DNA of 47,616 bases, taken from the NCBI GenBank assembly GCA_963702425.1, contig CAVPCQ010000013.1, positions 1 through 47,616 on the forward strand, written 5' to 3'. This DNA comes from an uncultured Acidobacteriota bacterium. Lineage in GTDB: Bacteria > Acidobacteriota > Polarisedimenticolia > J045. A model generated the notes under the pieces. That model did not search any database. It was given only the letters and a program-made list of their open reading frames with translations, and was not told where the DNA came from. This document shows positions 133 to 27,009 of this stretch, in pieces; positions within the stretch are counted from its first letter, which is position 1, and each line of letters starts with the position of its first letter. Position numbers and translations under genes: made by a program.

Positions 133-3100
133 TCAGGGACACCGCGCCGTGGCGGCCTCGATCTCCGTGTCGCGGCTCGCGGCCTGGCCGCCTCCCGGTA
201 GCTCGTCGTAGGTCCCGCCGCGCGCGCAGGCGACGCCCCTCAGCACGTAGAAGCCGCTCGGCCCCGCGGCGCCGTCCGTCGCCTCGAGCATCGGCGCGTC
301 GTCGGCCAGGCAGCCGCTCACGGCTGCGGCGAAGTCGCCCCGGGTCGCCACCAGTGTCGCCAGGTCGCCCCGCACGATGTCGTAGGCTGCGGCCGCGGCG
401 AGCGCCGGCCAGGCGAGACGCGCCAGCGCCCCGTCGCGGACCAGCGTCACCCGGGCCGAGCCGTCCGGTCGCGGGACGTCGTCGACGGTACCGTCGCAGT
501 CGTTGTCGAGCCCGTCACAGGTCTCGGCGGACGGATCCTCGTCCACCGAGCCGTCGAGGTCGTTGTCGAACCCGTCGCAGACGTCGGGGCCGGGGCGTAC
601 GCGCGCTTCGGCGTCGTCGGGGTCACCGCCGCACTCGCTGAACCCGTCCCCGTCGTGGTCGTCGAACGCGGATGAGCCGAGGAACGGTCCGAAGACGACC
701 GCACCGATCGCCGCGTCCCCGGAGCCGGGGCCTGCTCCCGAGGGGCCATTCGCCGCCGCCCACCAGTTCCGGGATGCCTGGATCGGCTGAGCCGCCAGGT
801 TGACGAGGCCCTGCCCGTTTCCGGTGAGGTCCGACAGCTCGATCCGGTTCGCTGCTCCCTGCGGCTCGGCGACGAAGTCGGCCTGGAGGCCGATCGCGTT
901 CGTCTCGAGTTCCAGGCAGCGCAGCGTCGTTCCCGTCGGCACGCCCGGGTCGGTCGGGCCGCGGAAGAGGCGGACGGCCGCACCGCGGGCCCGCGTCACC
1001 GTCGCCCGGTCGACCGTCGTGCCGACCGAGTCCAGCATCTCGCTCGCGCAGTCACCGGCCGCGCGGCCGGCGATCCGGATCCCCTCGGACCCCGCCGTGG
1101 CATCGATCGTGAGTTCGCTCAGCGCGGTCGTCTCGGCCAGCTCGACGTGTACGCCCGCGGCCCATCCACCGCCGTACCAGGCCGGCGCCGCGTGCGGCAC
1201 GATCGTGGCCCGTTCGACCGTCGTCCCGCGGGCGAGTCGCACCGCGACGCCGCGGCTCACGCCCTCGATCACGGTGTCCTCGATCGCGTTATGTTCCGCG
1301 ATCGCGGCCGCGCCCCCTTCGCAGGCCGCGCGCCCGGCGACGAGCACGCCGTCGCGCGAGCGGTGACCGCAGGCATCCTGCCCGAAGGCGTCGCGCAGCA
1401 CGCCGTCGATCGTCAGCCGCGCCAGCCGGTTGCCATCGCTCTCGCCGGTAACCCGCAGTTCGCTCACCCCGTTCGAGGCGAGGCAGAGGTCGGTCAACGA
1501 CGAGGCGCGGACGTCCTGCAGGGACAGGCCGGCTTCGTTGCCCTGGTTGGTGCCGCAGGGCGTGCCGGCGCCGGCGTCGCGGAGCGTGAGGTTTGAGACC
1601 GTGACGCCGCTCACGCCGGAGAGTTCGAGCGCCGGGAGATGCGACCCGCCGGACTGCGTGCCGTCGAGCACGCTCGGCGAGCAGGCGTTCGGGGCGGCGA
1701 TCCCCTCGAGGTCGATCGGCCGGTTCAGCGCGAAGTGACCGAGGTAGTTCCCCTCGCCGATCAGCACCAGGTCGCCCGGCACCGCGGCGACGAGCGCGTC
1801 CTGCAACAGGTCGAAGCAGGCCGCGACGGGCGGGGCCCAGCCGGACGACATCGGTCGCCGCACGAGGAGCGGGGCCGTGCCGCGCGCGATGTAGCCCGAG
1901 ACATCGACCGGCCCGCGCACGCCGTCCGACGCGCTCGCGGGCCCGCCGGCTCCGCCCCACCACGAGTGGCGGGCGTCGAAGGTCGCGCTCCGGTCGTTCT
2001 CGACCGCAACCGCGTTGCCGGAAAAGAGGTTCTCGCGGACGGAAGAACCGTCGCCGGCCGTGGCCTCGACGGCGACCGCGGCGACGGTATTGGCCGTGAA
2101 CCGGTTCGAGACGATCGCGATCCCGGAGGTCTGGCCCGTGAGCCGCACGCCGACGCCGTTGTCCTCGACCCGGTTGCAGGCGAACTCGCCGCCCGACACG
2201 GCGCGGTAGACGGCCCCGTCGCCGTCGCGACCGGCGCCCGCCCCGACCTGGCCCTGGATCCAGTTCCCCTCGACGCGCAGCCGCGTCGCCTGCTCGACCT
2301 CGACCGCGGCGTGCGAGTCCGCTCCCGGCGCGAGGCCGTTACCGCGCAGCTGGTTCCCGACCACGAGGATCCAGTCGTTCTGCTTCCCCTCGGGCGGGGC
2401 CAGCACGCGAACCGCGGCCCCCTCGTTCTCGTCGATCAGGTTGCCGATGACCAGCAGCCGTCCGGTGCCGTTGAGTCCCAGCACGCCGCTGCCGCTCCCC
2501 GGCCGGCCGTCGGCCAGCATTCCGTGGAGGTGCACCGAGACGATCCGGTTCTGCGTGTCGGTGTCGGCCGGCGCTCCCGTGCTGTCGGCCACGACACCGA
2601 AGGCACAGCCGCTGATCCCCATGTTCTCGATCCGCGCGTGGCGCACGTCGGGGTGCGCGGGGTCGCCGATCCGCAGGCAGGCGTGACCCGGTGCGCCGGA
2701 GATCTCGATCCCGCCCACGGTCACGCGCGAGGCGCGGATCGAGACGACGTCGCCGGAGCCCGTACCGCGCAGCTCGGGGTTTGGCGGCGGACCCCAGCGC
2801 AGCAGCGACAGCGGCCGGTCGATGACCAGGTCCTCGACGTAGAGGCCGGCCCCGACCTGCACGGTCTCCTCGGTGCAGGCCGCACGGATCGCGCGCCCGA
2901 TCGTGGCGCACGGCACCGCGGAGTCGAGGCAGAGGTTGTCCGCGTCGCTCCCGCCCGGGGCCACGAACCGGGTGCCCCGCTCCTCGTCGACCGAGCCGTC
3001 GCCGTCGTTGTCGAGGCCGTCGCACCACTCGAGTGCCGCCTCGTCGGCGAGCCGGCGGAACCCGGCCGGCTGCGGCGCCGTCCTGGGACCGGCGGTCGCG

Positions 3101-3210
3101 CGCCCGGGGACGGGCCGCTCGGCCGGCGGGGGAGCCGCCAGGGAGGTCGGCTCCCCCAGGAGGAAGCAGACACCCAGGCCGAGAGCGAGGTGTGGGGCGG
3201 TGCGGGGCAT
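133..3210 (-). CDS. secreted right-handed beta-helix repeat protein with CDGxDNDxDG putative metal-binding repeats and a shared C-terminal domain
   Basis: ORF 133..3450; likely start MPRTAPHLALG at 3210 with GGAGG RBS; signal-like N-terminus; FVAPGGSD..PCATIGRAI, parallel beta-helix repeats, NWWG-type motifs and three CDGxDNDxDG motifs. Confidence 0.8.
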   Translation of the reverse strand: MPRTAPHLALGLGVCFLLGEPTSLAAPPPAERPVPGRATAGPRTAPQPAGFRRLADEAALEWCDGLDNDGDGSVDEERGTRFVAPGGSDADNLCLDSAVPCATIGRAIRAACTEETVQVGAGLYVEDLVIDRPLSLLRWGPPPNPELRGTGSGDVVSIRASRVTVGGIEISGAPGHACLRIGDPAHPDVRHARIENMGISGCAFGVVADSTGAPADTDTQNRIVSVHLHGMLADGRPGSGSGVLGLNGTGRLLVIGNLIDENEGAAVRVLAPPEGKQNDWILVVGNQLRGNGLAPGADSHAAVEVEQATRLRVEGNWIQGQVGAGAGRDGDGAVYRAVSGGEFACNRVEDNGVGVRLTGQTSGIAIVSNRFTANTVAAVAVEATAGDGSSVRENLFSGNAVAVENDRSATFDARHSWWGGAGGPASASDGVRGPVDVSGYIARGTAPLLVRRPMSSGWAPPVAACFDLLQDALVAAVPGDLVLIGEGNYLGHFALNRPIDLEGIAAPNACSPSVLDGTQSGGSHLPALELSGVSGVTVSNLTLRDAGAGTPCGTNQGNEAGLSLQDVRASSLTDLCLASNGVSELRVTGESDGNRLARLTIDGVLRDAFGQDACGHRSRDGVLVAGRAACEGGAAAIAEHNAIEDTVIEGVSRGVAVRLARGTTVERATIVPHAAPAWYGGGWAAGVHVELAETTALSELTIDATAGSEGIRIAGRAAGDCASEMLDSVGTTVDRATVTRARGAAVRLFRGPTDPGVPTGTTLRCLELETNAIGLQADFVAEPQGAANRIELSDLTGNGQGLVNLAAQPIQASRNWWAAANGPSGAGPGSGDAAIGAVVFGPFLGSSAFDDHDGDGFSECGGDPDDAEARVRPGPDVCDGFDNDLDGSVDEDPSAETCDGLDNDCDGTVDDVPRPDGSARVTLVRDGALARLAWPALAAAAAYDIVRGDLATLVATRGDFAAAVSGCLADDAPMLEATDGAAGPSGFYVLRGVACARGGTYDELPGGGQAASRDTEIEAATARCP

Positions 3211-3317: not shown

Positions 3318-3347
3318 CTGACTGATCAGGCAGGTCGGGCTTATGAT
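3318..3347 (+). promoter_or_regulatory. putative sigma70 promoter of maeB
   Basis: CTGACT-18 nt-TATGAT; AT-rich hexamer in a GC-rich divergent intergenic region. Confidence 0.4.
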
Positions 3348-3448
3348 CGTGCTTCCTCGGGGCCCTCCCACCCGCCGCCCCGGCCCGCCGCGGCCCAGGC
3401 CGCACCCCCGGCGCGCCTCCGGGCGCCTGCCGGCAGGAGATGGAATCC

Positions 3449-5731
3449 ATGGCGAAGTTCGTGAAGATCCGCGACGAGGAAGCCCTCGCCTACCACGAGT
3501 TCCCGCGCCCGGGGAAACTGGGTGTCTACTCGACCAAGCCCTGCAGCTCGCAGCGCGACCTGTCGCTCGCCTACACCCCGGGGGTCGCCGTGCCCTGCAA
3601 GGCGATCGAGGCCGACCCCGAAGCGGCCTACCGCTACACGAACAAGGGCAACCTCGTCGCCGTGATCAGCAACGGGACCGCGGTGCTGGGCCTCGGCGAC
3701 ATCGGGGCCCTGTCCGGCAAGCCGGTCATGGAGGGGAAAGGGGTCCTCTTCAACCGCTTCGCCGGGATCGACGTCTTCGACATCGAAGTCGATAGCCACG
3801 ACGTCGAGGAGGTCATCCGCACCGTCCAGCTGATCGCCCCGACCTTCGGTGGGATCAACCTCGAGGACATCAAGGCCCCCGAGTGCTTCGAGGTCGAGCA
3901 GCGGCTGATCAAGCTGCTCGACATCCCGGTCTTCCACGACGACCAGCACGGGACCGCGATCATCAGCACCGCGGGCATCCTCAACTCGCTGGAGATCCTC
4001 GGGAAGGGGCGCGACGCGTGCAAGGTGGTGATCCTCGGCGCCGGCGCCGCGGGGGTCGCGTGCGGCGACATGCTGGTCGCTTCCGGCTTCCCCAAGCGCA
4101 ACATCCTGATGCTCGACCGCTCCGGCGTGATCTACAAGGGGCGGACCGAGCACATGAACCCCTACAAGGAGGCCTGGGCCAACGACACCAAGGACCGCAC
4201 GCTGGCCGACGCGATGCGCGGTGCCGACATCTTCCTCGGCCTGTCCGGGCCGGACCTCGTCAGCGAGGAGATGGTCAAGTCGATGGGGTCGAAGCCGATC
4301 ATCTTCGCGATGTCGAACCCCAACCCGGAGATCAAGTACGAGCTGGCCCGCGCCGCGCGCCCGGACGCGATCCTCGCCACCGGCCGCTCGGACTATCCCA
4401 ACCAGGTCAACAACGTCCTCGGTTTCCCGTTCATCTTCCGCGGCGCACTCGACGTCGGGGCCCGGCAGATCAACATGCAGATGAAGCTCGCCGCGTCCAA
4501 GGCGCTGGCCGAGCTGGCGAACACCGACATCCCGGACGAAGTCCTGGCTGCGTACGGAGTCGACGAGCTGCGCTTCGGGCCGGAGTACATCATCCCCAAG
4601 CCGCTCGACCCGCGGGTGCTGCTGTGGGTCGCCCCGGCGGTGGCCCAGGCCGCGGTCGACAGCGGCGTCGCGCGCAAGGCCGACACGTGGCAGGGCAAGG
4701 AGGCCTACGCGAAGCACCTCGAGGTGACCTTCCTCGGGCCCGGCCGGCGCGTGATCCGCGGGTTCATGGACAAGGCCCGAAGCGTCCCCGCCCGGATCGT
4801 GCTGACCGAAGGCGACGAGCTGCACGTCATCCGCGCCGCGCAGCGGCTGGTCGAGGAGAAGATCGCGAGCCCGATCCTGCTCGGCGACGAGCAGAAGATC
4901 CGCGGCCTGGCCGAGACCCACGGCGCCGACCTCGCGGGGATGACGATCCTCGACCCCTACACGTACCCCGACCTGGACAAGCTCGCGGCGCGACTGTTCG
5001 AGAAGCGCCAGCGGCGCGGCGTGACGCCAGCCCGGGCCCGCCAGCTCGTGCTGCGCCCGACGACCTTCGGCCTGCTGCTGGTCGAGCTGGGGCTGGCCGA
5101 CGGCCTGGTCGGCGGGATCGGCAAGGCCTACGCCGACATGGTCAAGCCGTCGCTGCAGATCATCGGCCCGCGGCCGGGGGTCAAGCGGGTCTCGGCCGCG
5201 ATGGCCTGCATCCTCAAGGACCGGCTGCTGATCCTGTCGGACACCGCGATCAACATCGAGCCCGACGCCGAGACCCTGGCCGAGATGGCGATCCAGGCCG
5301 CCGAGACCGCGGAGTCGCTGTTCGACCTGCAGCCCAAGGTCGCGCTGATCTCGTTCTCCAACTTCGGGTCGGTCAACCACCCCGAGCCGGACAAGGTCGC
5401 GGCGGCGATGCGGATCGTGCGTGCGCGGCGCCCGGACCTGGTCGTCGACGGCGAGATGATGGTCGACACCGCGCTCAGTCCGGAGGTCGCCGCGGTCTGC
5501 CCTCAATCGCTGATCCAGGGCGACGCCAACGTGCTCGTCTTCCCCAGCCTCGACGCCGGCAACGCGGCCTACAAGCTGCTCCGGCACGCGGCCGGGGCGG
5601 AGATCGTCGGGCCGATCCTGTGCGGTCTGGCCAAGCCGGTGAACCTGCTCAACCACGTCGCGTCGACCGATGAAATCGTGCGCTCGGCGGCGATCACCGC
5701 GCTGCAGGCCGCGCGCCTCAAGAAAATGTAG
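3449..5731 (+). CDS. maeB: NADP-dependent malic enzyme with C-terminal phosphotransacetylase-like domain
   Basis: DLSLAYTPGVA, GKPVMEGK, FHDDQHGT, GAGAAG, GRSDYPNQVNN; PTA domain (DGEM..D.AL, GNAAYKLL); AGGAG RBS before ATG 3449. Confidence 0.95.
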   Translation: MAKFVKIRDEEALAYHEFPRPGKLGVYSTKPCSSQRDLSLAYTPGVAVPCKAIEADPEAAYRYTNKGNLVAVISNGTAVLGLGDIGALSGKPVMEGKGVLFNRFAGIDVFDIEVDSHDVEEVIRTVQLIAPTFGGINLEDIKAPECFEVEQRLIKLLDIPVFHDDQHGTAIISTAGILNSLEILGKGRDACKVVILGAGAAGVACGDMLVASGFPKRNILMLDRSGVIYKGRTEHMNPYKEAWANDTKDRTLADAMRGADIFLGLSGPDLVSEEMVKSMGSKPIIFAMSNPNPEIKYELARAARPDAILATGRSDYPNQVNNVLGFPFIFRGALDVGARQINMQMKLAASKALAELANTDIPDEVLAAYGVDELRFGPEYIIPKPLDPRVLLWVAPAVAQAAVDSGVARKADTWQGKEAYAKHLEVTFLGPGRRVIRGFMDKARSVPARIVLTEGDELHVIRAAQRLVEEKIASPILLGDEQKIRGLAETHGADLAGMTILDPYTYPDLDKLAARLFEKRQRRGVTPARARQLVLRPTTFGLLLVELGLADGLVGGIGKAYADMVKPSLQIIGPRPGVKRVSAAMACILKDRLLILSDTAINIEPDAETLAEMAIQAAETAESLFDLQPKVALISFSNFGSVNHPEPDKVAAAMRIVRARRPDLVVDGEMMVDTALSPEVAAVCPQSLIQGDANVLVFPSLDAGNAAYKLLRHAAGAEIVGPILCGLAKPVNLLNHVASTDEIVRSAAITALQAARLKKM

Positions 5732-11114: not shown

Positions 11115-11387
11115 AGCCCCTGGCGCCGGCGCCGGCCCGCGGGAGACGGCGTTCTCCGGCGAGCCTCGACCCGTCCTTAATCCGAGACGATTCCTCGGCA
11201 GGTGTCCTGCCAGCAGGACGGTTCTCGCGTCCGTTCGCGAAGACGCGGGGACGATGCCCCATCTCTCCGACGATTCCCGTCGAACGGCCATTGCCGCGAC
11301 TCGTGCGGTACGAGTAGCTTTCCCCTGCATCGACCGGATCCGGCGACGCGCATAGGTCCGCGCGTCGCAGGGACGGGGGGGGAACTG

Positions 11388-14300
11388 ATGACTCGTCGCG
11401 CCGTTCCAGCGGGCTGCCCGTGGGCTTGGGGGTTCGTTTCGGCCACGCTCGCGCTTGCAGCGCTCGGCCATCCCGCGCGGGCCGCCGAGCGGCCATCCGA
11501 GCCGTCCGGGTGGCTGCGCCAGATCTCGACGGATCTGGCGGCACGCGAGTACCGCTTCGCACCCGACGGCGGCGAGCGTGTCGCCGCGCCGAACCGCGCA
11601 CAGGGTCTCTGCGTCGCCGCGACTCCCGACCGCGTGGAGCTCACGGCACGCTGCGCGGCGGGCGAACGCTCACCGATTGCCTTGCGCCTCGTTGGCTGGG
11701 GCCGCGCGGACGCTCCGGAGGCAGTCGCTCGCGGTCACCTGCCCCGGCTCGACGGCGCACGCATCTCGATCGAGCGCGGCCCGCTGGTCGAGTGGCTGTT
11801 CAACGACGCTCGCGGCGTCGAGCACGGCCTCACGATCGCGTCCGCGACGGCGGGCGACGGCCCGCTCGTGCTCGAGTTCGCGGTCGATGGCGCGCTGGTC
11901 GGTGCCGCGGGCGATGACGGCCGTGCGCTGATGTTCCTCGACCCGGCGGCCCGGCCGCTGGTGCGGTACGCCGGCCTCGCGGCGTCCGACGCGTCGGGCC
12001 GCGCGCTCCACGCACGGATGTTCCCGGTTCCCGGGGGTTTTCGGATCGAGGTCGACGACGCCGGCGCGAGCTACCCCGTCACGATCGACCCGCTCGCGAC
12101 CAGCGCCGCCTGGCAGGCCGAGTCGAATCAGGCGCTGGCCCGGTTCGGGCTGTCGGTCGCGACGGCCGGCGACGTCGACGGCGACGGCTTCAGCGACGTG
12201 ATCGTCGGCGCACCGTTCTTCGACGGCGACTTCAGCGACGAGGGAGCGGCTTTCCTCTATCGCGGCTCCGCGGCGGGGCCCGCGACCACGCCCTCCTGGT
12301 CGGCCCGCGGCGGCGAGGGCGGGGCCCGCTTCGGAATCTCGGTGGCCGGCGTGGGCGACCTGGACGGCGACGGGTTCGGCGACGTCGTCGTCGGCGCGGA
12401 CGGCTGCACCGGCTTGATCGCGCGGAGCGGGTGCGTGCATGTCTTCCGCGGCTCGGCTGCCGGGCTGGCGGTCGCCGCCGACGTGGTCCTCCAGGGGGGG
12501 CAGTCCGACGCCGCGTTCGGCCGCAGCGTGAGCGGGGCCGGCGACGTGGACGGCGACGGCTTCGCGGACGTCGCGGTCGGTGCACCGCTCCACGACGAGC
12601 CGGTGGCGGACGAGGGGCGAGCCTTCCTTTACCGCGGCTCGCCGACCGGCGTCCTCCCCACCCCGGCCTGGCAGGCGGGCTCCGGACAGGCCGGCGCCGA
12701 GCTGGGCGCGGTGGCCGGCGCGGGTGACGTCAACGGCGACGGCTACGCCGACCTGGTCGTCGGCGCCCCGCGCTTCAGCGCCGGCGAGAGCGAGGAAGGC
12801 CGGGCCTGGCTCTATCTCGGCTCCGGCGGGGGTCTCGAAACCAGCGCGGCTTGGGCGCTCGAAGGCAACCTCGCCGGTGCGCAGCTCGGCACGGCGGTGG
12901 CCACGGCGGGAGACGTCAACGGCGACGGCTACGCCGAGTTCGTCGTCGGCGCGCCGCGCTGGAGCAACCCCGAGGCCGAGGAGGGAGCGGCATTCGTCCA
13001 CTTCGGCTCGGCATCGGGCCCGGCGGGCGCGTGGACCTACGAGTCGAACCTCGTCGGCGCGCGGGTCGGCTTCACGGCCGCGACCGGCGGGGATCTGAAC
13101 GGGGACGGGCGGGCCGACCTGCTGCTCGGCATCGAGGGCTTCGGCGCGCCCGAACCCGCGGAAGGACGCGTCCTGGCGTTCGTCGGATCGGCTGCCGGCC
13201 TCTCGACCACGCCGTACTGGTCGCGTGAGATCGACCAGGCCGGCGCGCGCTTCGCGACCGTGGCGACCGCCGGCGACGTCAACGGCGACGGCTTCTCCGA
13301 CGTCATCGTCGGGGCGGACCTCTTCGACGCCGGCGAGAGCGACGAGGGCGCGGCCTTCGTGTACTACGGCAGCGGCGACGGCCCGGCGGCGACGCCCTCC
13401 TGGGCGCCACCGCCCGACGCGGGCTGGCAACTGTTCGGCTATTCGGTCGCGCCGGCCGGCGACGTCGACGGCGACGGTTTCTCCGACGTGATCGTCGGCG
13501 ACCCGTCGTTCCTCGGCGCGGGCGGGGCCGCGACCGGCCTGGCCGCGCTCTACGCCGGCGCCCCGGGCGGCCTCGCGCCGACGCCGACCTGGACCGCAAG
13601 CGGCCCGGGCGGTTCGGCGTTCGGCATCGCGGTCGCCGGCGCGGGCGACGTTGACGGAGACGGCTACGGCGACGTGGTGATCGGTGCCTCCGACTACCAG
13701 GCCGACTTCGCGCGCGAGGGCGCAGCCTTCGTGTACCGCGGCGGCCCGGGCGGCCTCGCCGCGACCGCCGCCTGGAGCATCGAAGGGGACCGCGCGAACG
13801 CGCGCCTCGGCGCCGCGGTGGCCGGGGCCGGAGACGTCAACGGCGACGGTTTCGGCGACGTCGCGGTGGCCGCGCCCGACTACACCGGCGGGCTGCTGTT
13901 CGCCGGCCGCGTGCTCGTCTTCCACGGCGCAGCGGCTGGGCTGGGGAGCGCCCCCGCCTGGTCCGTCGATGGCGACCAGGAAGCGGCCGACTTCGGTCAC
14001 CACCTGGCCCCGGCGGGCGACGTCGATCGCGACGGGTTCGACGACCTCCTGATCGGCGACCCGTTCTACCTGGGCGCCTTCCTCGGCGGAAAAGCGTGGC
14101 TCTTCCGCGGCGGACCGAGCGGCCTTGCGACGAGCCCCGGATGGGCGATGGAAGGCGAGGACGCCGGCGACGGCTTCGGGCGCTCCGTCGGCTCCGCCGA
14201 CGTCGACGGGGACGGCTTCACCGACCTGCTCGTCGGCGCTTCCGGCTCGAACGCCGCGTTCCGCGACGCGGGACGGGTCTACCTCTTTCCCGCCTCCGCC

Positions 14301-15539
14301 GCGGGACCGGCGAATGCGCCGGCCTGGACCTTTGACGGATCGAACGCGCTGGCGAAGCTCGGCTGGTCGATCGCCGCCGCGGGCGATGTCAACGGCGACG
14401 GGTTCGGCGACGTCGTCGTCGGCGCCCCCGACGGCACCAAGACAAGGGCCTACGAGGGACGGGCCTACCTCTTTCTCGGCGGCGGCTCGGGGCTCGCCTC
14501 TCTCCCGGCGTGGGACGTCGCCAGCGGGGTCGCCCGGTCCGACCTGGGCCTCTCGGTCGCCTCGGCGGGCGACGTCGACGGCGACGGGTTCTCCGACCTG
14601 CTGATCGGTGACCCCGACGCGGGAGAGATCGGCGCCGCGTTTCTCTTCCCGGGCGGAGGCGAGCGCGGTACGACGCGCGCGATCCGCCAGCGCCGCACCG
14701 ACGGCACGCCGATGGCACTGCACGACCTGACGCTCACCGACCGCGCGTTCGACGCCCTGCTCTTCGGGCGCACCCCCGCGGGACGCGGAGGGGTGAGGCT
14801 CGAGGTCGAGGCGAAGCCGCTCGGCGTCCCGTTCGACGGCACCGGACTGCTGGTCGGTCCGATGACCTCGACCGGCGATCCCGGCCCGGGCGGCAGCGCG
14901 GCCGGACTCGCTCTGCGGGTCTCCGGGCTTCCGCTCGCGACGCCCTTCATCTGGCGTGCGCGGCTCGTCTCGCAAGACCCGCTCTTCCCGCGCTCGCGCT
15001 GGTCCTCCATCCAGGGCAACGGCCCGCGCGAGGCGGACTTCGTCACCTGGTGCGGCGCCGCGGCCAGCTGGTACCTCGACGCCGACGGCGACGGGTTCGG
15101 AGACCCGGTTGCGCCGCGCCTGTCGGACTGCGCGCAGCCCGCGGGGTACGTCGCGAACGGGCTCGATTGCAACGACGCCGATCCCTCGTGTTTCGCGCTG
15201 CCCGCGGAGGTCGGAGCCCTGACGGTCGAGCGAATCGGCGCGACCGTGCGGATCTCGTGGTCTTCGCAGGACGCCACGGCGGGCGCCGGCACCGCCTACG
15301 ACCTCGTCGCCGGCGACCTGGCCGCGCTGCGCGCTTCGAGCGGCTTCGGAGCCGCCGCGTGCCGGGCCGACGCCGTGCCCGATTCGCCGTTCGACGACCC
15401 CTCACCGCTGCCGGCGGCGGGGGCGGGCGAGTACCTGCTGGGGCGTGCGCAGAACAGCTGCGCGGCCGGAACCTACGGAGCGGCGTCGATCGTGCCGGAT
15501 CCGCGCGACGCACTCGATTCCGGGGGGCCGTGCCCGTAG
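11388..15539 (+). CDS. secreted FG-GAP (integrin alpha-like) repeat protein, 14 repeats, with a shared C-terminal domain
   Basis: Signal-like MTRRAVP..ALAALGHPARA; 14 copies of the GD[VL][DN]GDGxxD[VL]x[VI]G-type motif; WYLDADGDGFGD..DCNDADP motif; ends in CP. Confidence 0.88.
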   Translation: MTRRAVPAGCPWAWGFVSATLALAALGHPARAAERPSEPSGWLRQISTDLAAREYRFAPDGGERVAAPNRAQGLCVAATPDRVELTARCAAGERSPIALRLVGWGRADAPEAVARGHLPRLDGARISIERGPLVEWLFNDARGVEHGLTIASATAGDGPLVLEFAVDGALVGAAGDDGRALMFLDPAARPLVRYAGLAASDASGRALHARMFPVPGGFRIEVDDAGASYPVTIDPLATSAAWQAESNQALARFGLSVATAGDVDGDGFSDVIVGAPFFDGDFSDEGAAFLYRGSAAGPATTPSWSARGGEGGARFGISVAGVGDLDGDGFGDVVVGADGCTGLIARSGCVHVFRGSAAGLAVAADVVLQGGQSDAAFGRSVSGAGDVDGDGFADVAVGAPLHDEPVADEGRAFLYRGSPTGVLPTPAWQAGSGQAGAELGAVAGAGDVNGDGYADLVVGAPRFSAGESEEGRAWLYLGSGGGLETSAAWALEGNLAGAQLGTAVATAGDVNGDGYAEFVVGAPRWSNPEAEEGAAFVHFGSASGPAGAWTYESNLVGARVGFTAATGGDLNGDGRADLLLGIEGFGAPEPAEGRVLAFVGSAAGLSTTPYWSREIDQAGARFATVATAGDVNGDGFSDVIVGADLFDAGESDEGAAFVYYGSGDGPAATPSWAPPPDAGWQLFGYSVAPAGDVDGDGFSDVIVGDPSFLGAGGAATGLAALYAGAPGGLAPTPTWTASGPGGSAFGIAVAGAGDVDGDGYGDVVIGASDYQADFAREGAAFVYRGGPGGLAATAAWSIEGDRANARLGAAVAGAGDVNGDGFGDVAVAAPDYTGGLLFAGRVLVFHGAAAGLGSAPAWSVDGDQEAADFGHHLAPAGDVDRDGFDDLLIGDPFYLGAFLGGKAWLFRGGPSGLATSPGWAMEGEDAGDGFGRSVGSADVDGDGFTDLLVGASGSNAAFRDAGRVYLFPASAAGPANAPAWTFDGSNALAKLGWSIAAAGDVNGDGFGDVVVGAPDGTKTRAYEGRAYLFLGGGSGLASLPAWDVASGVARSDLGLSVASAGDVDGDGFSDLLIGDPDAGEIGAAFLFPGGGERGTTRAIRQRRTDGTPMALHDLTLTDRAFDALLFGRTPAGRGGVRLEVEAKPLGVPFDGTGLLVGPMTSTGDPGPGGSAAGLALRVSGLPLATPFIWRARLVSQDPLFPRSRWSSIQGNGPREADFVTWCGAAASWYLDADGDGFGDPVAPRLSDCAQPAGYVANGLDCNDADPSCFALPAEVGALTVERIGATVRISWSSQDATAGAGTAYDLVAGDLAALRASSGFGAAACRADAVPDSPFDDPSPLPAAGAGEYLLGRAQNSCAAGTYGAASIVPDPRDALDSGGPCP

Positions 15540-16245: not shown

Positions 16246-18282
16246 ATGCTCACGGTTTTCTCGCGTCTTCGCGCGCGGTGCGCGGCTTTCCTCGTACTCG
16301 CCGGCGCGCTCACGGGAGCCGCTTTCGGCCAGGCACCGTTCCGCGACGTGACCGCGGAGAGCGGGATCGGCAGCGCGGTCTGGGGCCCGACCGCGAGCTG
16401 GGGCGATGTCAACAACGACGGCTACCCCGACCTCCTGGTCGGGTGCGGCCGGCTCTTCCGCAACGACGGCCCGCCCGCCTTCACCTTCACCGAGCTCGCG
16501 GCCGGGCTCGCCGGCGCGCACGGCGCCTTCGCCGACGTCGACAACGACGGCGACCTCGACGTCTACTGCCCTGCCGGGGGCAACGACGACCACCTGTTCC
16601 TGAACCAGGGCCCGCCTTCTTTCGCCTTCGTCGAACGGACCGACTTCAACGGCGACGGAACCCCCGACATGGTCGACGGCCGGAACTCGATCGCGACCGG
16701 CTGGGGTGACTACGACCTCGACGGCTCGGTCGACATCTACGTGGGCTCCTACGAGCGTCACTGCGGCGGCTCGCCGACCGTCTGCGCCGACTGCGAGCTG
16801 AACACGATGTGGCGCGGGCTGGGCGACGGCCGGTTCCAGAACGTCAGTGCGGCCTGGGGCCTCGAGGCCGTCGAGAAGTCGATGGGCAACCTCGGCTACT
16901 GCGTCGTCAACACCTCGAAGGCCTGCACGCGGGACGGCGACTGCCCGGCGGGCGACTTCTGCAAGACGGGGAACTGCGCGCGCGGGATCAACCCCGGCGA
17001 TTTCGACAACGATGGCGACCTCGACATCCACGTCTCGTCCTACCGGCTCGACCCGAACATGCTGATCCGCAACGACGGCGCCGGTCATTTCAGCAACGCG
17101 TCGTTCACGACCGGGGTCGCCGGCAATCCCGACGGGAGCACCTACGGCCACTCGCTCGGCGCCGACTGGGGCGACATGGACGGCGACGGCGACCTCGACC
17201 TGTACACGGCCAACCTGGCCCACTGGTGGGGGATCGCCGTCGGCGGGCACGACACCTCGTACCTCTGGAAGAACAACAACGCCGGCGCCACCTTCACCAA
17301 CGTCCGCGCCCAATCGGGGATGCGCGTCAGCTGGAACCCGGTGGCGCAGGTCGACTGCGAGGAGGGCTCTGCGGGGTGGGCCGATGCCGACAACGACGGC
17401 GACCTCGACGTCTACGTCACGGGCTTCTACCCGTTCGTGCAGCACTGGTCGACGATGTACCGGAACAACGGCGACACCGATGCCAACGGCGTACCGAACT
17501 TCGTTGACATGTCGGATCCCGGAGGAGGTGTCTGCGGCGCCCTCCCCGATCCGCCGAACACCACCGTCGGCCCGACCTGCATGAAGCGCTGGTACTCGTG
17601 GACCGCGGTCTGGGCCGACTACGACCGCGACGGCGACCTCGACCTGCTGACCTCGGGCAGCCGGCGCTTCAACCAGTGCGACGCGCTGCCGAAGCCGGCC
17701 GAATGCGGCTCGGCCGACCCGGGGAACCGCGACACCTGGCCGCAGCCGGCGTACCTCGTGCTGTTCCGCAACGAGACCGGCAGCGCGATCGGCCGATGGC
17801 TCGAACTGCGCCTGGTCGGGGGCAACGGCGCGAACCGCGCCGCGATCGGCGCGCGCGTCACGCTGACCGCCGACCTCAACGGCGACGGAACGAACGAGTC
17901 GCCGCTGATCCGGGAGGTCTCCGGCGGGGAGGGGTACGAGACCTCGCAGGACGCGCAGGTCCAGCACTTCGGTCTGAGGCACGCGCAGGCGGTGGCGCAG
18001 CTTCAGATCCGCTGGCCGGCGCTCGGCACCCCGTTCTCCACCTTCACGAACCTGCAGCCGGACACCTACTACGTCGCCTACCGCGCCGGGGCCGACCTGC
18101 GGCGCGGGACCTCGCCGGATAGTCTGCCGGTGCTCCGCGCCGCGGTTCCGCTCTACCCCGCGCGGGACGCGGTGCTGGGCGACGGAGCGAACTACTTCTA
18201 CCTGGTGGACGACCCGCAGGCGGTCATCGACGTGGGCAAGGACGCGGCGCGCGGCGAGGTGGTGATCGCCGTCCGGAACTGA
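16246..18282 (+). CDS. secreted CRTAC1/ASPIC-UnbV family FG-GAP-like protein
   Basis: Signal peptide ..GAAFG; repeated WGDxDxDGDLD; NRAAIGARVTL and REVSGGEGY..Q..QHFGL ASPIC/UnbV motif; GGAGG RBS, TATATT upstream. Confidence 0.9.
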   Translation: MLTVFSRLRARCAAFLVLAGALTGAAFGQAPFRDVTAESGIGSAVWGPTASWGDVNNDGYPDLLVGCGRLFRNDGPPAFTFTELAAGLAGAHGAFADVDNDGDLDVYCPAGGNDDHLFLNQGPPSFAFVERTDFNGDGTPDMVDGRNSIATGWGDYDLDGSVDIYVGSYERHCGGSPTVCADCELNTMWRGLGDGRFQNVSAAWGLEAVEKSMGNLGYCVVNTSKACTRDGDCPAGDFCKTGNCARGINPGDFDNDGDLDIHVSSYRLDPNMLIRNDGAGHFSNASFTTGVAGNPDGSTYGHSLGADWGDMDGDGDLDLYTANLAHWWGIAVGGHDTSYLWKNNNAGATFTNVRAQSGMRVSWNPVAQVDCEEGSAGWADADNDGDLDVYVTGFYPFVQHWSTMYRNNGDTDANGVPNFVDMSDPGGGVCGALPDPPNTTVGPTCMKRWYSWTAVWADYDRDGDLDLLTSGSRRFNQCDALPKPAECGSADPGNRDTWPQPAYLVLFRNETGSAIGRWLELRLVGGNGANRAAIGARVTLTADLNGDGTNESPLIREVSGGEGYETSQDAQVQHFGLRHAQAVAQLQIRWPALGTPFSTFTNLQPDTYYVAYRAGADLRRGTSPDSLPVLRAAVPLYPARDAVLGDGANYFYLVDDPQAVIDVGKDAARGEVVIAVRN

Positions 18283-18289
18283 CCTCGCG

Positions 18290-18559
18290 TCAGGGGACGC
18301 GCTGCCGCCGCCGGACCAGTTCGGCCTGCAGCGCCTCGACCGCGCGCGCCACGCAGTCGCGCGACGGCACCGGCGGTGGCGCGCGGCGGCAGGCGTCGAT
18401 CTGCTCTCTCAGGCCGTCCAGCAGGGTGCGGCAGTCGGCGCAACCGGCGAGGTGCCGCTCCAGCTCCTCGCGCTGCGGCACCGGCAGCGTCCCCTCCAGC
18501 AACTCCGAGAGCGTGACCGCCCCGGACTCGCACTGCGGGCACCGCGATCCCGAGCTCAC
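18290..18559 (-). CDS. zinc-finger (ZAS/zf-HC2) anti-sigma factor
   Basis: LSELLEGTL..LERHLAGCADC (HxxxCxxC); GTGA overlap with the sigma gene stop. Confidence 0.85.
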   Translation of the reverse strand: MSSGSRCPQCESGAVTLSELLEGTLPVPQREELERHLAGCADCRTLLDGLREQIDACRRAPPPVPSRDCVARAVEALQAELVRRRQRVP

Positions 18560-19188
18560 GCCGTCGTCCCTCCCTCGGCCTGCAGCCGCCGCCGCAGCGC
18601 CAGCCGCGCGCGGTGCAGCCGGACCTTCGCGTTGGCGACAGAGATCTGGAGCACCTCGGCCACCTCCTCCGTCGAGAGCTGCTCGAAATCCCTCAACAGC
18701 AGAATGATGCGGTAGTCGGGCGGAAGGTGACGGATCGCGGCCTCGATCCGCTCGCGGGCCTCCCCGGCCAGGACCGCGCGTTCGGGGTCGACGGCGCCCG
18801 CGTCGGGCAAGTCGGGCGCCTCACCGCGCTCGGCGGAGAGCGGGAACAGCTCGTCGAACGCCACCGTGCGTCCCGGGTCGCGCGGGCCGCGGCGGCTCAT
18901 CAGGCACTCGTTCGAGACCACGCGCCAGAACCAGGTCCGGAGCGCGCCGGGGTCTGCGAGGTCGGCTAGTCGCGTATAGACCTTGACCAGCGTCTCCTGG
19001 AAGACGTCCTCGGCGTCGGCCCGGTTGCCGCACATCCTGAGGCCGAAGGCCATGATCAGCGGCCCGAAGCGCTCGACGAAGCTTTCGAAGGCCTCCGGAT
19101 CCCCGGCCTGGACCGAGCGGACCAGCGCGAGGTCTCGAGGGCCGAGCCCCGGGCGCTCCGGGGTGGCGTGGGGAGGGCCGGATGGCAT
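18556..19188 (-). CDS. ECF RNA polymerase sigma factor
   Basis: GDPEAFESFV, DAEDVFQET, LRTWFWRV (region 2); LPPDYRIILLLRD..EVAEVL..NAKVRLHRAR (region 4); start 19188 or 19197. Confidence 0.92.
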   Translation of the reverse strand: MPSGPPHATPERPGLGPRDLALVRSVQAGDPEAFESFVERFGPLIMAFGLRMCGNRADAEDVFQETLVKVYTRLADLADPGALRTWFWRVVSNECLMSRRGPRDPGRTVAFDELFPLSAERGEAPDLPDAGAVDPERAVLAGEARERIEAAIRHLPPDYRIILLLRDFEQLSTEEVAEVLQISVANAKVRLHRARLALRRRLQAEGGTTA

Positions 19189-19328
19189 GGCGTGCATTCT
19201 AGCGTGCCCCGCCAGCGGCCCGTCGAAGCCCCCCGGGACGCCGTGGCATCGCCCATCCGGACTGATTAGAGTACCTCCCTGCCCACCCCCCGGCGCGGCC
19301 AGCGCGCCGCCATTCCGAGGTATCCGAC

Positions 19329-20378
19329 ATGATCGAGAAGATCCGCGAGACGCTCGGCCCACAGGCACCGCTCCTGGACTACGTTGCCAGGGGAATCCCC
19401 AAGGACTCGCTGCACCTCCCGGGGCCCGACTGCGTCGACCGGCTGCTGGTCCCGATGGACCGGCCGCCGCAGGTCCTGCGCAGCTTCCAGTCGCTGATCG
19501 GGAATGGGCGGCTCGCCGGAACCGGTTTCGTCTCGATTCTCCCGGTCGATCAGGGGATCGAGCACTCCGGGGCGGCCTCCTTCGCGCCGAATCCCGCGTT
19601 CTTCGACCCCGAGACGATCGTCCGGCTCGCGATCGAGGGAGGCTGCAACGGCGTGGCTTCGACGCTGGGAGCGCTCGGCGCGGTCGCGCGCCGCTATGCG
19701 CACCGGATCCCGTTCATCCTCAAGCTGAACCACAACGAGCTGATGACCTACCCGAACAAGTTCGACCAGGTGATGTTCGCGTCGGTCAAACAGGCCTGGG
19801 ACATGGGCTGTGCCGGGGTCGGCGCGACGATCTATTGGGGCTCGGATGGAGCGACGCGCCAGCTGCAGGAGGTCTCGGCCGCATTCCAGGCGGCGCACGA
19901 GATGGGGATGATCGCGATCCTCTGGTGCTACACGCGCAACCCGGCCTTCAAGAGCGACAAGGACTACCACGTGTCGGCCGACCTCACCGGCCAGGCGAAC
20001 CACCTCGGCGTCACGCTGGCGGCCGACATCATCAAGCAGAAGCTGCCGGAGAACAACGGCGGATACCTCGCGCTCGAGAACTACGGCAAGACGAGCAAGA
20101 AGGTCTACGGCGAGCTGGTCCCCGACCACCCGATCGAGTGGACGCGCTGGCAGGTCGTCAACTGCTACATGGGACGGATCGGTCTGATCAACTCGGGCGG
20201 CGCGTCCGGGAAGAACGATCTGCAGGACGCGGTCGCGACCGCAGTGATCAACAAGCGCGCCGGCGGGATGGGGCTGATCTCGGGGCGGAAGGCGTTCCAG
20301 AAGCCGTTCGCCGAGGGCGTGAAGCTCCTCCATGCGATCCAGGATGTCTACCTCTGCCCCGAGGTGACGGTCGCCTGA
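19329..20378 (+). CDS. fbaB: class I fructose-bisphosphate aldolase (DhnA type)
   Basis: [51 protein letters not shown]. Confidence 0.95.
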
Positions 20379-23242: not shown

Positions 23243-24532
23243 TTACCGCGCCGGGAGCGCCTTCAGCAGGTCCCTCGCCTCGGCCGCGTCGGCGCTGCTG
23301 GAATCGAGCTCGAGAAACTTCTTGAACGAGTCGCGGGCCTTGCCGTACTCCCCCAGCCCGAGGTACGCGAGCCCGAGCTGGTTCCAAGCCTTCGCATACT
23401 TCGGATTGACCTCGACCGACTTCTCGAAGGCCGTGATCGCGCGCTTGCGGTCGTCGTTGGTGACCCCCTTCTTGTTCATGATCGAAACGCCGGCGTTGTA
23501 GAACATCCGGTCGGCGGCCTGCGGATCGGCCGCGGCCAGCTTGCGGAAGATCTCCTCCGCGCCGGCAAAGTCCCCTTTCCCGCTCAGGATGTCGGCCTTC
23601 GCCAGCAGCGCCTCGGAGTCGGACGGCGCGATCGACAGCCAGCGGTCGGCCTCCTTCGCGGCGTTTTCGGTCTGCCCGGCCTCGCCGTACGCCTCGAACA
23701 GCGCCTTGGCCACCAGCGCGTTCTGCGGCTGCAGCTCACGCTCCTTCTCGAGCAGCGGGACCGCGGCGGCGATCTGGCCGCGCTCGGCCATCCAGACGGC
23801 CATCTGCAGGCGGACCCCGATCCGGTCGGGAGCGACTTGGATCAACCGGTAGGCTTCGCGCACCGCCCCCTGCGTGTCGCCCGCCTTGGCCATGTAGGTC
23901 GCGCGCGCCCACATCAGGTCGGGATCGTTGGGCTTCTCGGTCAGGGCCTGCCCCAGGATCTCGATCGCCGCGGGGTAGTCCCCCAGCGCCGCCGCCTCGT
24001 CGGCCTTCTCCGCCGGCGTCAGGTCTTTCTTCGGCTGCCCCGGTGCGGCTCCGGCAGCCGGCGCGGACGCCGGCGCGACGTAGTCGGTCACCTTCGCCAC
24101 GACCAGCGAGATCGTCGTATTCGCGCCGCGATGCTTGACGATCGGCAGCTTGTCCTGGGCCTTCGGGTTGAGCGAGCCCGAGTCGTCCTGGAAGATCTCG
24201 CGCGTCCCGCGCCGCGTCCGGATCTGGTACTTGCGGATGTACCACTCCGGGCTGTCGACCGTCAGAAGGTAACCCGCCTCGAACAGCTCGACCTGCGGAA
24301 AGATGAACGTCCCCTTCTTCGTCGTCTTCATCACGAAACCGGGGTCGCCTTCGACGTTGCGGGCCAGCTTGATCGGCAGGTCGGGGACGGGGTTCCCCTG
24401 CTCGTCCGCCACCTCGCCCCACACGCCGGGCCGGGTCTCGTTCAGGACGCCCTGCGCTGCGGCCGGCAGTGCGCACGCTGCGAAGAGAACACCGGCTGCC
24501 GCGGCGAGCCGGCTCACGACACGAACATTCAT
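23243..24532 (-). CDS. exported tetratricopeptide-repeat protein with N-terminal carboxypeptidase-regulatory-like domain
   Basis: Start MNVRVVSRL with GAGGAG RBS; signal peptide; WGEVADEQGNPV; TPRs such as FEKSVEVNPKYAKAWNQLGLAY. Confidence 0.85.
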   Translation of the reverse strand: MNVRVVSRLAAAAGVLFAACALPAAAQGVLNETRPGVWGEVADEQGNPVPDLPIKLARNVEGDPGFVMKTTKKGTFIFPQVELFEAGYLLTVDSPEWYIRKYQIRTRRGTREIFQDDSGSLNPKAQDKLPIVKHRGANTTISLVVAKVTDYVAPASAPAAGAAPGQPKKDLTPAEKADEAAALGDYPAAIEILGQALTEKPNDPDLMWARATYMAKAGDTQGAVREAYRLIQVAPDRIGVRLQMAVWMAERGQIAAAVPLLEKERELQPQNALVAKALFEAYGEAGQTENAAKEADRWLSIAPSDSEALLAKADILSGKGDFAGAEEIFRKLAAADPQAADRMFYNAGVSIMNKKGVTNDDRKRAITAFEKSVEVNPKYAKAWNQLGLAYLGLGEYGKARDSFKKFLELDSSSADAAEARDLLKALPAR

Positions 24533-24591
24533 CGGACGGACTCCTCGTCCGGGCGGGTTGCCGGAATGATAGGCCCGACGCCTGCGGCGAT

Positions 24592-25554
24592 CTAGGCCTT
24601 GCCCGCGATCTGGTCCACCTCGGCGCAGGTCTTGGTGACGACGCCGACCGAGCGCTCGAGCGCAGCCTTCTCGGCATCGTTCAGCGGGACCTGGATCACC
24701 TTCTCGACACCGCTCTTGCCGAGCACCGCCGGCACGCCGACGAACAGCCCCTTGACGCCGTACTCCCCTTCGAGGAGCGCGCTGACCGCGAGGATCTGCT
24801 TGCGGTCGTAGATGATCGCCTCGGCCATCGTCAGCGCCGACCAGGCCGGCGAGACGAACGCGGAGCCCGAGCCGAGCAGCTTGACCACCTCGCCCCCCGC
24901 GCCGCGGGTGCGGGCTTCGATCGCGTCGAGCTTGGGGCCGTCGACGAACATCTCTACCGGCAGGCCGGCGACGCGCGTCGCGGAGCGGATCGGAACCATG
25001 TCGTCGCCGTGGCCGCCGAGCACGAGCGCGGTGACGTTGTCGACCGAAACCCCCGCTGCCTCCGCGATGAAGTAGCGGTAGCGGGCCGAGTCGAGCACAC
25101 CGGCCATTCCCATCAGCCGGCCCTTCGGCAGGTGCAGCAACTGGTGCAGCCGGTAGACGATCGCGTCGAGCGGATTGGCGATCGAGATCACGATCGCGCC
25201 CGGGGCATGGGCTTTGATCCCCTCGGCGACCTGGTCCGTGATCTTCAGGTTGGTCGCCAGCAGTTCCTCGCGCGACGGCAGCGTCCCGTCGGGCTTCGGC
25301 TTGCGCGGCACACCGGCGGTGTTGATCACCAGCTGCGAGCCCGCCAGGGCCTCGTAGGTCTTGGAGGCCTCGAAGCGGCAGTCGAAGCCCACGACCGGAC
25401 TCCCCTCGGCGATGTCGAGGCACTTCCCCTTGGCGAGGTCGGGCGGCATGATGTCGACCAGACCCACCGCTCGGGCCAGCCGACGACGGCCGATCTCCTG
25501 GACCAGAACGCCACCGATCATGCCCCCACCCACCACGCCGATCTTCTCGAGCAT
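24592..25554 (-). CDS. mdh: malate dehydrogenase (LDH-like), extended active-site loop
   Basis: VVGGGMIG, TAGVPRKP, NPLD, GMAGVLDSAR, LGGHGDDMVP, GGEVVKLLGSGSA; GGAGGAG RBS; TAAAAT -10 upstream. Confidence 0.9.
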   Translation of the reverse strand: MLEKIGVVGGGMIGGVLVQEIGRRRLARAVGLVDIMPPDLAKGKCLDIAEGSPVVGFDCRFEASKTYEALAGSQLVINTAGVPRKPKPDGTLPSREELLATNLKITDQVAEGIKAHAPGAIVISIANPLDAIVYRLHQLLHLPKGRLMGMAGVLDSARYRYFIAEAAGVSVDNVTALVLGGHGDDMVPIRSATRVAGLPVEMFVDGPKLDAIEARTRGAGGEVVKLLGSGSAFVSPAWSALTMAEAIIYDRKQILAVSALLEGEYGVKGLFVGVPAVLGKSGVEKVIQVPLNDAEKAALERSVGVVTKTCAEVDQIAGKA

Positions 25555-25701
25555 CGCTCTCCTCCGTGCGCCCGGCGCGCTCGGCGCGGGCTCGTGCCCG
25601 GCTCACCCGGGCGGGAAACAAAACAGCATTTTAGCCGACCCGCCGCCGGCGTCGCGCGACTTCCGGCGGCTTTCGGGGCCGTGCGTGACCCGGGTGGCGC
25701 G

Positions 25702-27009
25702 GTGAGGGGGCCTTCGGGCGCACCTCACCCCGGCCCCGCCCCCCCGGCCTGGGCCGGCACCCTTCCCGGATCGATCTACCGGCTGCTCGCCTACGGCGCG
25801 ATCGGCGCCGCCGGCCTCCTGCATCGCCTGTCACCGGACCCCGCAGCGCGGCGCGACCTGGCCGAGCGGTTGGCGACGGGAGAGGCCCTGGAGGAGCTGC
25901 CGCGCGGCGCGATCTGGGCCCACGCGGCGTCGATGGGCGAGGTCCGAGCCCTCGCGTCGCTGGCTCGGGCGCTGGTCGAGGCCGGCGAGACGCGTCCGTT
26001 CTTCGTGACCACCCAGTCGGGCACCGGACGCCGACTGGCCCGCGAGCTGGGATTCGCCTCGCAGCTCGCCCCGGCGGACCAGCCGACGGTCCTCAGGCGC
26101 TTCCTCGGGGCCCTGGAACCGCCGCTGCACCTGGTCGTCGAAACCGAGATCTGGCCGTGGCGGCTCTCACTGTTGCGCGGCCTGCGGGTGCCGACGGCGA
26201 TCGTCTCGGCCCGCCTCTCGTTGCGGCGGTGGCCGAGCTATCGCCGGCTGCGGGGGCTATACGGCGCCGCGCTGTCCGAGGTCACGCTGCTCTGCCCGGC
26301 CAGTGAGGGCGACCGCGACCGGTTCGCTGCTCTCGGAGTTCCCGCGGCGTGCTTCGGCCCGGTGGGAAACCTCAAGTGGGACGCCGCCCCACCCCCTCCC
26401 GACCCGCTCGCGATCCAGGCGCTCCGGTCCGAGCTGGGGCTCGATCCGGCGCTGGCGTGGATCGTTCTGGGGAGCTGTCACCCGGGCGAGGCGGCGCCGT
26501 TCGCGACACTCGCGGCCGGGCCGGAACGGTCGGCGCTGCTGGTCGCGCCACGGCACCCGGAGCGGTTCGACGAGCTGGCCGCCGAGCTGCAGGGCGCCGG
26601 GCTGTCGGTGCACCGGGCCGCGGCGGGCACGGCCCCGGCCGGCACCCGCGCGGTGCTGCTCGACCGGATGGGGGTGCTGCCGCGGGCCTACCCGCTGGCC
26701 GCGGCCGCGACCCTGGGAGGGACCTTCGCGCCGGTCGGCGGCCACTCGCCGCTGGAGGCCGCCGCCGCCGGCTGCCCCCTGGTTTCGGGCCCCCACGATC
26801 ACGCCCAGGCCGACCTGGTCGAGCCGCTGGCGGACGCGGGTGCCCTGGTCCGCTGCGCGAGCCCGGCCAGCGCCCTCGCGCAGCTTCGCGCTTGGCTGAA
26901 CGACCCCGCGGCGCGGCTGGCCGCCGGCGAGGCGGCGCAGCGCGCGGTCGCGTCGCACCGCGGCGTGGCGCGGATCCTCGCCGCTGCGGTACGGGGGCTC
27001 GAGGCGTGA
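25702..27009 (+). CDS. waaA: 3-deoxy-D-manno-octulosonic acid (Kdo) transferase
   Basis: IWAHAASMGE, VETEIWP, GNLKWD, VAPRHPERF, GGHSPLE; start codon uncertain (25681 or 25702). Confidence 0.88.
   Translation: MRGPSGAPHPGPAPPAWAGTLPGSIYRLLAYGAIGAAGLLHRLSPDPAARRDLAERLATGEALEELPRGAIWAHAASMGEVRALASLARALVEAGETRPFFVTTQSGTGRRLARELGFASQLAPADQPTVLRRFLGALEPPLHLVVETEIWPWRLSLLRGLRVPTAIVSARLSLRRWPSYRRLRGLYGAALSEVTLLCPASEGDRDRFAALGVPAACFGPVGNLKWDAAPPPPDPLAIQALRSELGLDPALAWIVLGSCHPGEAAPFATLAAGPERSALLVAPRHPERFDELAAELQGAGLSVHRAAAGTAPAGTRAVLLDRMGVLPRAYPLAAAATLGGTFAPVGGHSPLEAAAAGCPLVSGPHDHAQADLVEPLADAGALVRCASPASALAQLRAWLNDPAARLAAGEAAQRAVASHRGVARILAAAVRGLEA

Follow-up and report, generated by a model that had tools for sequence, protein, structure and literature searches.

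The C-terminal ~110 residues of two proteins with unrelated bodies, an FG-GAP repeat protein and a beta-helix/NosD-like protein, are predicted to be copies of one divergent, uncatalogued Fn3-like domain, which is marked by a helix after strand C and by a C-terminal extension closing in Cys-Pro. Both genes lie in a 47,616-nucleotide stretch of DNA (the window; G+C content 72%), positions 1 to 47,616 of contig CAVPCQ010000013.1 (C13 below) of an uncultured Acidobacteriota bacterium, whose assembly (GCA_963702425.1) comprises 5.1 Mb in 42 contigs with a completeness of 91% and a contamination of 5.85%. We read the tail, with a probability of about 0.6, as an Fn3-like module, clasped by a disulfide, that closes exported proteins and would serve as a stabilising, exopeptidase-resistant cap or spacer. 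A preliminary description of this DNA, made from the letters alone, had instead proposed a lineage-specific secretion or surface-attachment tag with a cysteine that could be free for linkage.

Fold and cysteines of the tail domain

The stop-to-stop open reading frame (ORF) of the FG-GAP gene occupies positions 11202..15539 (+), with the ATG at 11388 as the likely start. Its product begins with a signal-peptide-like sequence (MTRRAVPAG...ALAALGHPARA; heuristic) and contains 14 FG-GAP stretches recognised by Pfam, while the last ~110 residues have no Pfam or NCBIfam match. This tail reads EVGALTVERIGATVRISW...GGPCP and is followed by TAG; the beta-helix protein ends with ...ATARCP, followed by TGA. 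The two tails share 32% identity in the alignment of 42 paralogous tails of the same genome from which our profile, A1, was built (a second alignment, A2, covers the subtype A described below). Cysteines are found at tail positions 52, 85, and 109 in the FG-GAP protein and 51, 79, and 108 in the beta-helix protein, and both tails close with Cys-Pro-stop. The pairing of the two tails by length, motif order, three aligned cysteines and the Cys-Pro-stop end, on which the preliminary description was built, is thus correct, and both are the same ~110-residue domain. Its further statement that each tail directly follows an Asp/Cys metal-binding repeat stands for the beta-helix protein (PF11617, residues 975-991), while in the FG-GAP protein the DxDGDG...DCND motif was recognised by eye only. 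In the genome at large, a regular expression places a motif of this type at most 50 residues upstream in 25 of 62 terminal copies.

As had been claimed, inspection of the sequences shows no transmembrane helix or basic cluster in the tail, and the tail corresponds to no catalogued sorting tag and to no Pfam or NCBIfam family. At E < 0.01 the 42 members of A1 match no Pfam family, and the five families listed do not include fn3. The nearest ESM Atlas clusters (0.96, 0.96, and 0.94) are annotated as "hypothetical protein", have no common Pfam family, and are commonest in Acidobacteriota.

The structure predicted by AlphaFold2 from A1 has a predicted local distance difference test score (pLDDT) of 88.6 and a predicted template-modelling score (pTM) of 0.82, and the model from A2 (pLDDT 86.9; pTM 0.80) has an identical order of strands and helices. 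In a Foldseek comparison with the PDB the first matches were FN3 domains of titin, integrin beta4, and contactin (TM 0.59, root-mean-square deviation (rmsd) 2.6, best E value 8.8e-3), none of them reaching E <= 0.001. An independent structural search (VIA-align) returned FN3 entries in 50 of the top 50 positions (Z 7.9-9.0; 75-88 residues aligned; rmsd 2.1-3.9). The structure matches extend over model residues 1-92, and the final ~18 have no counterpart in them. Searching the sequences of the PDB with the A1 profile pointed in the same direction, with matches to an Fn3-like protein of Clostridium thermocellum (3mpc; E value 1.8e-5), the Fn3 module of CtXyl5A (5g56; E value 5.9e-4), and the FnIII domain of chitinase A1 (1k85; E value 0.015). 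The FN3-like pattern noticed in the preliminary description is thus upheld by two models and by profile matches, and the Foldseek check that it proposed did return FN3. In the model a short or irregular strand follows F, and the helix after strand C coincides with the YDxVxGDLxxL stretch.

The closest known counterparts are bacterial Fn3-like modules (e.g., 3mpc, 5g56), with which the tail shares the fold (Z 8.3), profile similarity over positions 9-86, and an occurrence in secreted multidomain enzymes. What sets the tail family apart from these modules is the helix behind strand C, the mid-domain Cys that never varies, the 14-29 additional residues with Cys(-Pro) at their end, and the marked tendency to come last in the protein.

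The only invariant columns of A1 are C52, C109, and P110; the columns W18, P69, and G91, which are otherwise near-invariant, are typical FN3 core positions. When all FN3-like matches located at most 35 residues from an ORF end were classified, 81 had both the mid-domain and the tail Cys, none had the mid-domain Cys alone, 21 had neither, and two were ambiguous. Endings other than Cys-Pro retain the Cys and continue for one to four other residues (CQ, CR, CAR, CLP, CAARK). Because the mid-domain and the terminal Cys are invariant and always co-occur, we infer that they form a disulfide by which the extension is held against the sandwich like a clasp. Of the 83 copies with a tail Cys, 36 have the third Cys, which follows strand F. 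At a distance of 8-32 residues ahead of the profile start there is a further Cys in 28 of 33 copies with the third Cys vs 20 of 45 without it (odds ratio 7, from paralogues that are not independent), and this suggests a second, optional disulfide from the third Cys to the upstream linker.

These patterns bear directly on the idea that one Cys of the tail is free and joins the protein covalently, by a thioester or an intermolecular disulfide, to another molecule. The FG-GAP protein does have an odd number of cysteines, 11, after its predicted signal peptide, but the beta-helix protein has 22, so that the odd Cys is a quirk of the former and not a trait of the family. Moreover, the additional Cys of the FG-GAP protein (PSCF) is missing from its two closest paralogues, and among the 65 terminal copies that end in Cys-Pro, 22 have just the mid-domain and terminal Cys, 29 have three, and nine have four. 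The terminal Cys never occurs without its mid-domain counterpart, and the third Cys tracks a candidate upstream partner, which speaks against a thiol left free throughout the family. A covalent linkage of this kind is very improbable.

Table 1. Positions of the two source genes, their tails and the tail elements in the window
Feature	Position	Strand	Basis or remark
FG-GAP repeat protein gene	11388..15539	+	1383 amino acids from ATG at 11388; ORF list and translation
FG-GAP protein tail, ~110 amino acids	15207-15536	+	
FN3-fold core, tail residues 1-92	15207..15482	+	AlphaFold2 model, pLDDT 88.6; FN3 matches span model residues 1-92
Helix inserted after strand C, YDLVAGDLAALRAS stretch	within FN3 core 15207..15482	+	AlphaFold2 model
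C-terminal extension, 18 residues, ending Cys109-Pro110	15483..15536	+	outside the FN3 matches; short helix at RDALD in the model
Mid-domain Cys52, invariant	15360..15362	+	invariant column and co-occurrence with the tail Cys; putative disulfide partner Cys109
Variable third Cys85 (NSC, after strand F)	15459..15461	+	putative partner a Cys in the upstream linker
Terminal Cys109, Pro110, and TAG stop	15531..15539	+	
Beta-helix/NosD-like protein gene with MopE-type motifs	133..3210	-	Pfam PF13229, PF05048, PF11617; start MPRTAPHLALG
Beta-helix protein tail, 109 amino acids, subtype A (...GQxxSRDxEIxAxxxxCP)	136..462	-	alignment A2; AlphaFold2 pLDDT 86.9
Beta-helix tail cysteines	Cys51 310-312, Cys79 226-228, Cys108 139-141	-	

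Family size, position and passengers

A tblastn search with the tail had revealed dozens of weaker copies in the genome, and the A1 profile detects 101 domains in 92 stop-to-stop ORFs of the whole genome, a few copies being counted double on account of two duplicated region pairs (C13/C14 and C1/C25). Furthermore, 129 ORFs end in CP vs 41.6 expected from the internal dipeptide frequency, and 66 of these 129 carry the domain; the remainder are mostly Arg-rich and appear to be out of frame, with at least four being missed members of the family. The number of domains together with the excess of CP endings excludes a chance resemblance between the two tails, as well as the case, named in the preliminary description as fatal to its proposal, that the two copies are the only ones.

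Three subtypes of the extension can be distinguished. Subtype A (...YD-x-GQxGxRDAEIxASPxxCP) includes the beta-helix tail, which has 12 paralogues at 32-47% identity in A2, subtype B reads ...G-xxSxGxxRxxxxxCP, and subtype C has two additional cysteines (...C-P-x6-CP). The FG-GAP tail groups with two paralogues on contig C18, with 55% and 50% identity in A1 (54% and 50% by tblastn). FG-GAP passengers that are paralogues of one another bear different tail subtypes. The beta-helix ORF (window 136-3489, -) recurs with equal length and an identical tail sequence at C14:5430-8783 (+), either as a duplicated region or as an assembly repeat at the contig ends.

The domain reaches the end of the profile in 69 of the 101 cases, of which 53 stop exactly at the ORF end, nine stop 1-11 residues short of it, and seven are internal. 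The expectation that a profile search would yield many strictly C-terminal matches is thus borne out for 62 of the 69 full-length copies and contradicted by the other seven, which go part of the way towards the occurrence at arbitrary positions that the preliminary description named as a refutation. In the seven internal copies the protein continues directly after GCP, SPC, RC, or VCP, mostly into thrombospondin-type DxDxDG repeats, and two of these proteins have another copy at their end. Internal copies also occur in metagenomes. Using the profile on 1.84 billion representatives gave 15805 matches at E <= 0.001, a figure that does not count the Cys-clasped family because the top matches are giant tandem generic-FN3 proteins (profile positions ~10-92). 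Among the 150 metagenome proteins listed, internal or tandem copies with the same boundary were found in eight of the nine examined (the exception is P0148), e.g., ...GCP-DADADG three times in P0031 and ...PCP-IAPGD in P0083. Since internal and tandem copies retain the Cys(-Pro) boundary, Cys-Pro-stop marks a domain that comes last and not a motif recognised at a free C-terminus.

Selenocysteine incorporation or read-through after Cys-Pro was considered and rejected; the stop codons following the terminal tails are TGA in 30, TAG in 26, and TAA in six cases, and no conserved downstream peptide was found. TAG is commoner after the terminal tails (26 of 62) than after the other called genes (538 of 1975), which shared ancestry of the paralogues may explain. 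The genome also encodes a second terminal FN3-like subtype that ends exactly in ...N-x-C-G-Q/T-E-G-P-stop and is partly found on subtilases (C16:91828-96840, C16:98654-100624, C18:179992-182304, C16:107246-107512, and C35:39117-42626). It has neither the mid-domain Cys nor the extension, and is as strictly terminal without a clasp.

The proposed sharing of one domain by unrelated passengers proved to be extensive, as the 54 passengers with a length of 120 residues or more form 40 BLAST clusters. Pfam recognises among them FG-GAP, beta-helix, Kelch propellers, PKD, PD40, BNR/sortilin, and cohesin, together with a glucose/sorbosone dehydrogenase, a trypsin-like peptidase with P-domains, three subtilases, GH10, and GH39. 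A strict home-made test for signal peptides was positive in 26 of 51 tail proteins vs 344 of 1632 other genes; a looser heuristic hardly discriminates (40 of 62 tail proteins vs 232 of 500 controls).

Distribution and the search for a sorting or docking partner

Matches to the domain were present in all 31 genomes of relatives that were searched (24 genera, 12 families, one class; one of them, G030, is unpublished), with 6 to 141 matches, rather than copies, per genome. When the phylum was sampled evenly, 24 of 151 genomes had a match at E <= 1e-8: the genome of the window, all 11 other genomes of the same class, and 12 of 139 from other classes. Outside the class, and with at most 33 candidates scored per genome, there were 23 and 32 matches in two genomes of family f16, 14 in family f34, and one to seven in the others. 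Presence also varies inside single families, with 6 of 10 genomes positive in f32 and 1 of 5 in f15. The domain is thus lineage-enriched, which is the form in which the lineage restriction assumed at the outset holds. In the part of the literature accessible to us, no description of a comparable domain from Acidobacteria came to light.

That at least 62 proteins have a beta-sandwich as their very last part could be explained by a true C-terminal signal for secretion or sorting. The domain would then label proteins for export or surface display through an outer-membrane pathway not yet described, belonging to one acidobacterial class and some allied families; it would be an analogue of the type IX C-terminal domain (CTD) unrelated to it, possibly removed after export, with the internal copies as relics or spacers. 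According to the published account (PMC4804311), the type IX CTD is a beta-sandwich of ~80-100 residues, located C-terminally on many signal-peptide proteins with unrelated passengers and without a transmembrane helix. The tail domain resembles it in being a C-terminal beta-sandwich on unrelated passengers without a transmembrane helix, but does not share its strictly C-terminal position, given the seven internal copies among 69. We know of no counterpart of the conserved Cys pair of the tail in type IX CTDs. The PEP-CTERM/exosortase, LPXTG/sortase, and MYXO-CTERM systems are likewise C-terminal, with many paralogues per genome and unrelated passengers. The tags of PEP-CTERM, LPXTG, and MYXO-CTERM consist of a short motif followed by a transmembrane helix and a basic cluster, whereas the tail is a folded 110-residue domain with a Cys-Pro end and no hydrophobic stretch.

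C-terminal sorting domains typically go together with a processing enzyme of their own, which occurs in the same genomes and is encoded beside the tag. Searches of the genome, which is 91% complete, gave no match to PorV (NF033710), for which the control, Bacteroides thetaiotaomicron, matched below the cut-off, and none to SprA (TIGR04189), Por_Secre_tail (TIGR04183), or the PEP-CTERM model, for all three of which the controls were also silent; the exosortase EpsH had no match at E <= 0.001. The lack of PorV, EpsH, PEP-CTERM, and Por_Secre_tail matches implies, within the limits of these controls, that no known tag is present on these proteins, which fits an undescribed system. The enrichment of signal-peptide-like N-termini by the strict test, crude as that heuristic is, and the exoenzymes and adhesin-like proteins among the passengers would also agree with a sorting role, as would the strong terminal bias.

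Against such a role, no candidate protease or outer-membrane partner recurs next to the 72 tail genes whose surroundings were compared; the adjacent genes group into regulators and kinases, subtilases, AAA_14/DUF4143 ATPases, Uma2, and transposase-like genes, and no processing enzyme was found around the small carriers described below or beside the tail gene of G033, a genome with few copies. The invariant residues look like a structural pair rather than a motif for cleavage or recognition, and the internal and tandem copies share the Cys(-Pro) boundary. The terminal FN3-like domain is found on 8 of 35 subtilase ORFs, so that it is not a general exoenzyme tag, and the presence of two secretins in the genome makes available a type II route that needs no tag. 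The looser signal-peptide heuristic, positive in nearly half of the controls, further weakens the enrichment argument. None of our findings demonstrates a sorting role for the tail, and we consider one quite unlikely; the secretion or attachment tag of the preliminary description is not supported by them.

The neighbourhoods of the tail genes also yielded several observations in their own right. Five paralogous AAA_14/DUF4143 ATPase genes and Uma2-family genes recur beside subtype-A tail genes, e.g., at C18:192800-201400. The window's own setting is one of housekeeping genes; the FG-GAP gene is adjoined by genes for an FG-GAP_3/UnbV_ASPIC protein (16246-18279, +) and an ECF-type sigma factor (18559-19368, -). 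The window also carries a lipid A gene set (Kdo transferase, LpxK, and lipid A acyltransferase) at 24469-29002 (+), which indicates that the cell has an outer membrane.

The last position of the domain on so many different passengers could also be explained if it were a non-covalent retention or docking module, binding an envelope component such as lipopolysaccharide or exopolysaccharide, or a surface protein, and so keeping exported proteins at the cell surface. The best-conserved carriers are of interest here, being proteins of ~200 amino acids with little besides a signal peptide, short SxSY repeats, and the Cys-clasped FN3 tail. They adjoin genes for fibre-like proteins of 560-1560 amino acids with conserved N- and C-ends (...IRVLVMSR), for which no Pfam family was found and which have a weak likeness to the N-domain of the Bdellovibrio mosaic adhesive trimer (30.6 bits vs a cut-off of 60). 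Such pairs are located at C21:60829-63618, C1:4331-10909, C17:135357-138976, and C32:13156-15900, and recur in G004, G118, G033, G129, and G051, and by coordinates in further genomes, so that five or more families of the phylum are represented; in G033, whose flanks alone were readable among three neighbourhoods, the pair has housekeeping genes on its sides. The fibre gene was found in 20 of the 151 genomes of the phylum sample (a tally that takes in the unpublished genome G052) vs 24 of 151 for the domain, and the two distributions differ. With the query used, fibre genes were not found in 5 of the 11 same-class genomes nor in the two tail-rich f16 genomes, and we conclude for this reason that the fibre is not a general partner of the domain. 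Moreover, no conserved surface patch is apparent, as conservation beyond the Cys pair and the Pro falls on FN3 core positions. Retention at the surface is unlikely, if still a conceivable explanation of the terminal bias and the diversity of passengers.

Proposed role and implications

In the reading that we prefer, that of a disulfide-clasped Fn3-like end domain, the module would be a bacterial Fn3-like beta-sandwich of a divergent kind, ~92 residues long, in which a helix follows strand C. The extension of 14-29 residues would fold back so that its last Cys joins the invariant Cys of the mid-sandwich by a disulfide, and an optional second disulfide may tie the loop after strand F to the linker ahead of the domain. 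The module would fold and be oxidised in the periplasm as part of exported proteins. In this lineage, where the domain is mostly the last one, the ORF would simply stop one residue, usually Pro, past the clasp Cys, and the clasp and terminal Pro may keep extracellular enzymes and adhesins from unravelling at the C-terminus and from being trimmed there by carboxypeptidases. The domain itself would be neither cleaved nor recognised as a sorting signal.

Several points weigh against this proposal. The terminal bias in the genome, 62 of 69 full-length copies, is extreme for an ordinary FN3 module, and a similar picture emerged from 20 high-scoring loci of nine other genomes, selected for matches that reach the profile end or nearly so (profile position 96-100), of which 17 have CP-stop, two have C-x-stop, and one continues. 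The tens to ~140 matches per genome resemble the cargo sets of C-terminal-domain secretion systems, and so do the passengers themselves, i.e., proteases, glycoside hydrolases, and adhesin-like repeats. In addition, the disulfide is deduced from residue conservation, and a protective role for it is our interpretation.

With 62 terminal copies among about 3000-4000 called genes, the domain closes ~1.5% of the genes of this genome; in its relatives it closes tens of proteins, yet it is unnamed in the family libraries. With a curated model, many C-termini now called "hypothetical" in Acidobacteriota metagenomes would be annotated, and exported enzymes and adhesin-like proteins would stand out as a coherent set. 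If the domain is a stabilising cap only, it would represent a naturally disulfide-stapled FN3 scaffold. If the terminal bias instead reflects export or surface retention, the domain would lead to a hitherto undescribed route of secretion or display in a major phylum of soils and sediments that is poorly cultured.

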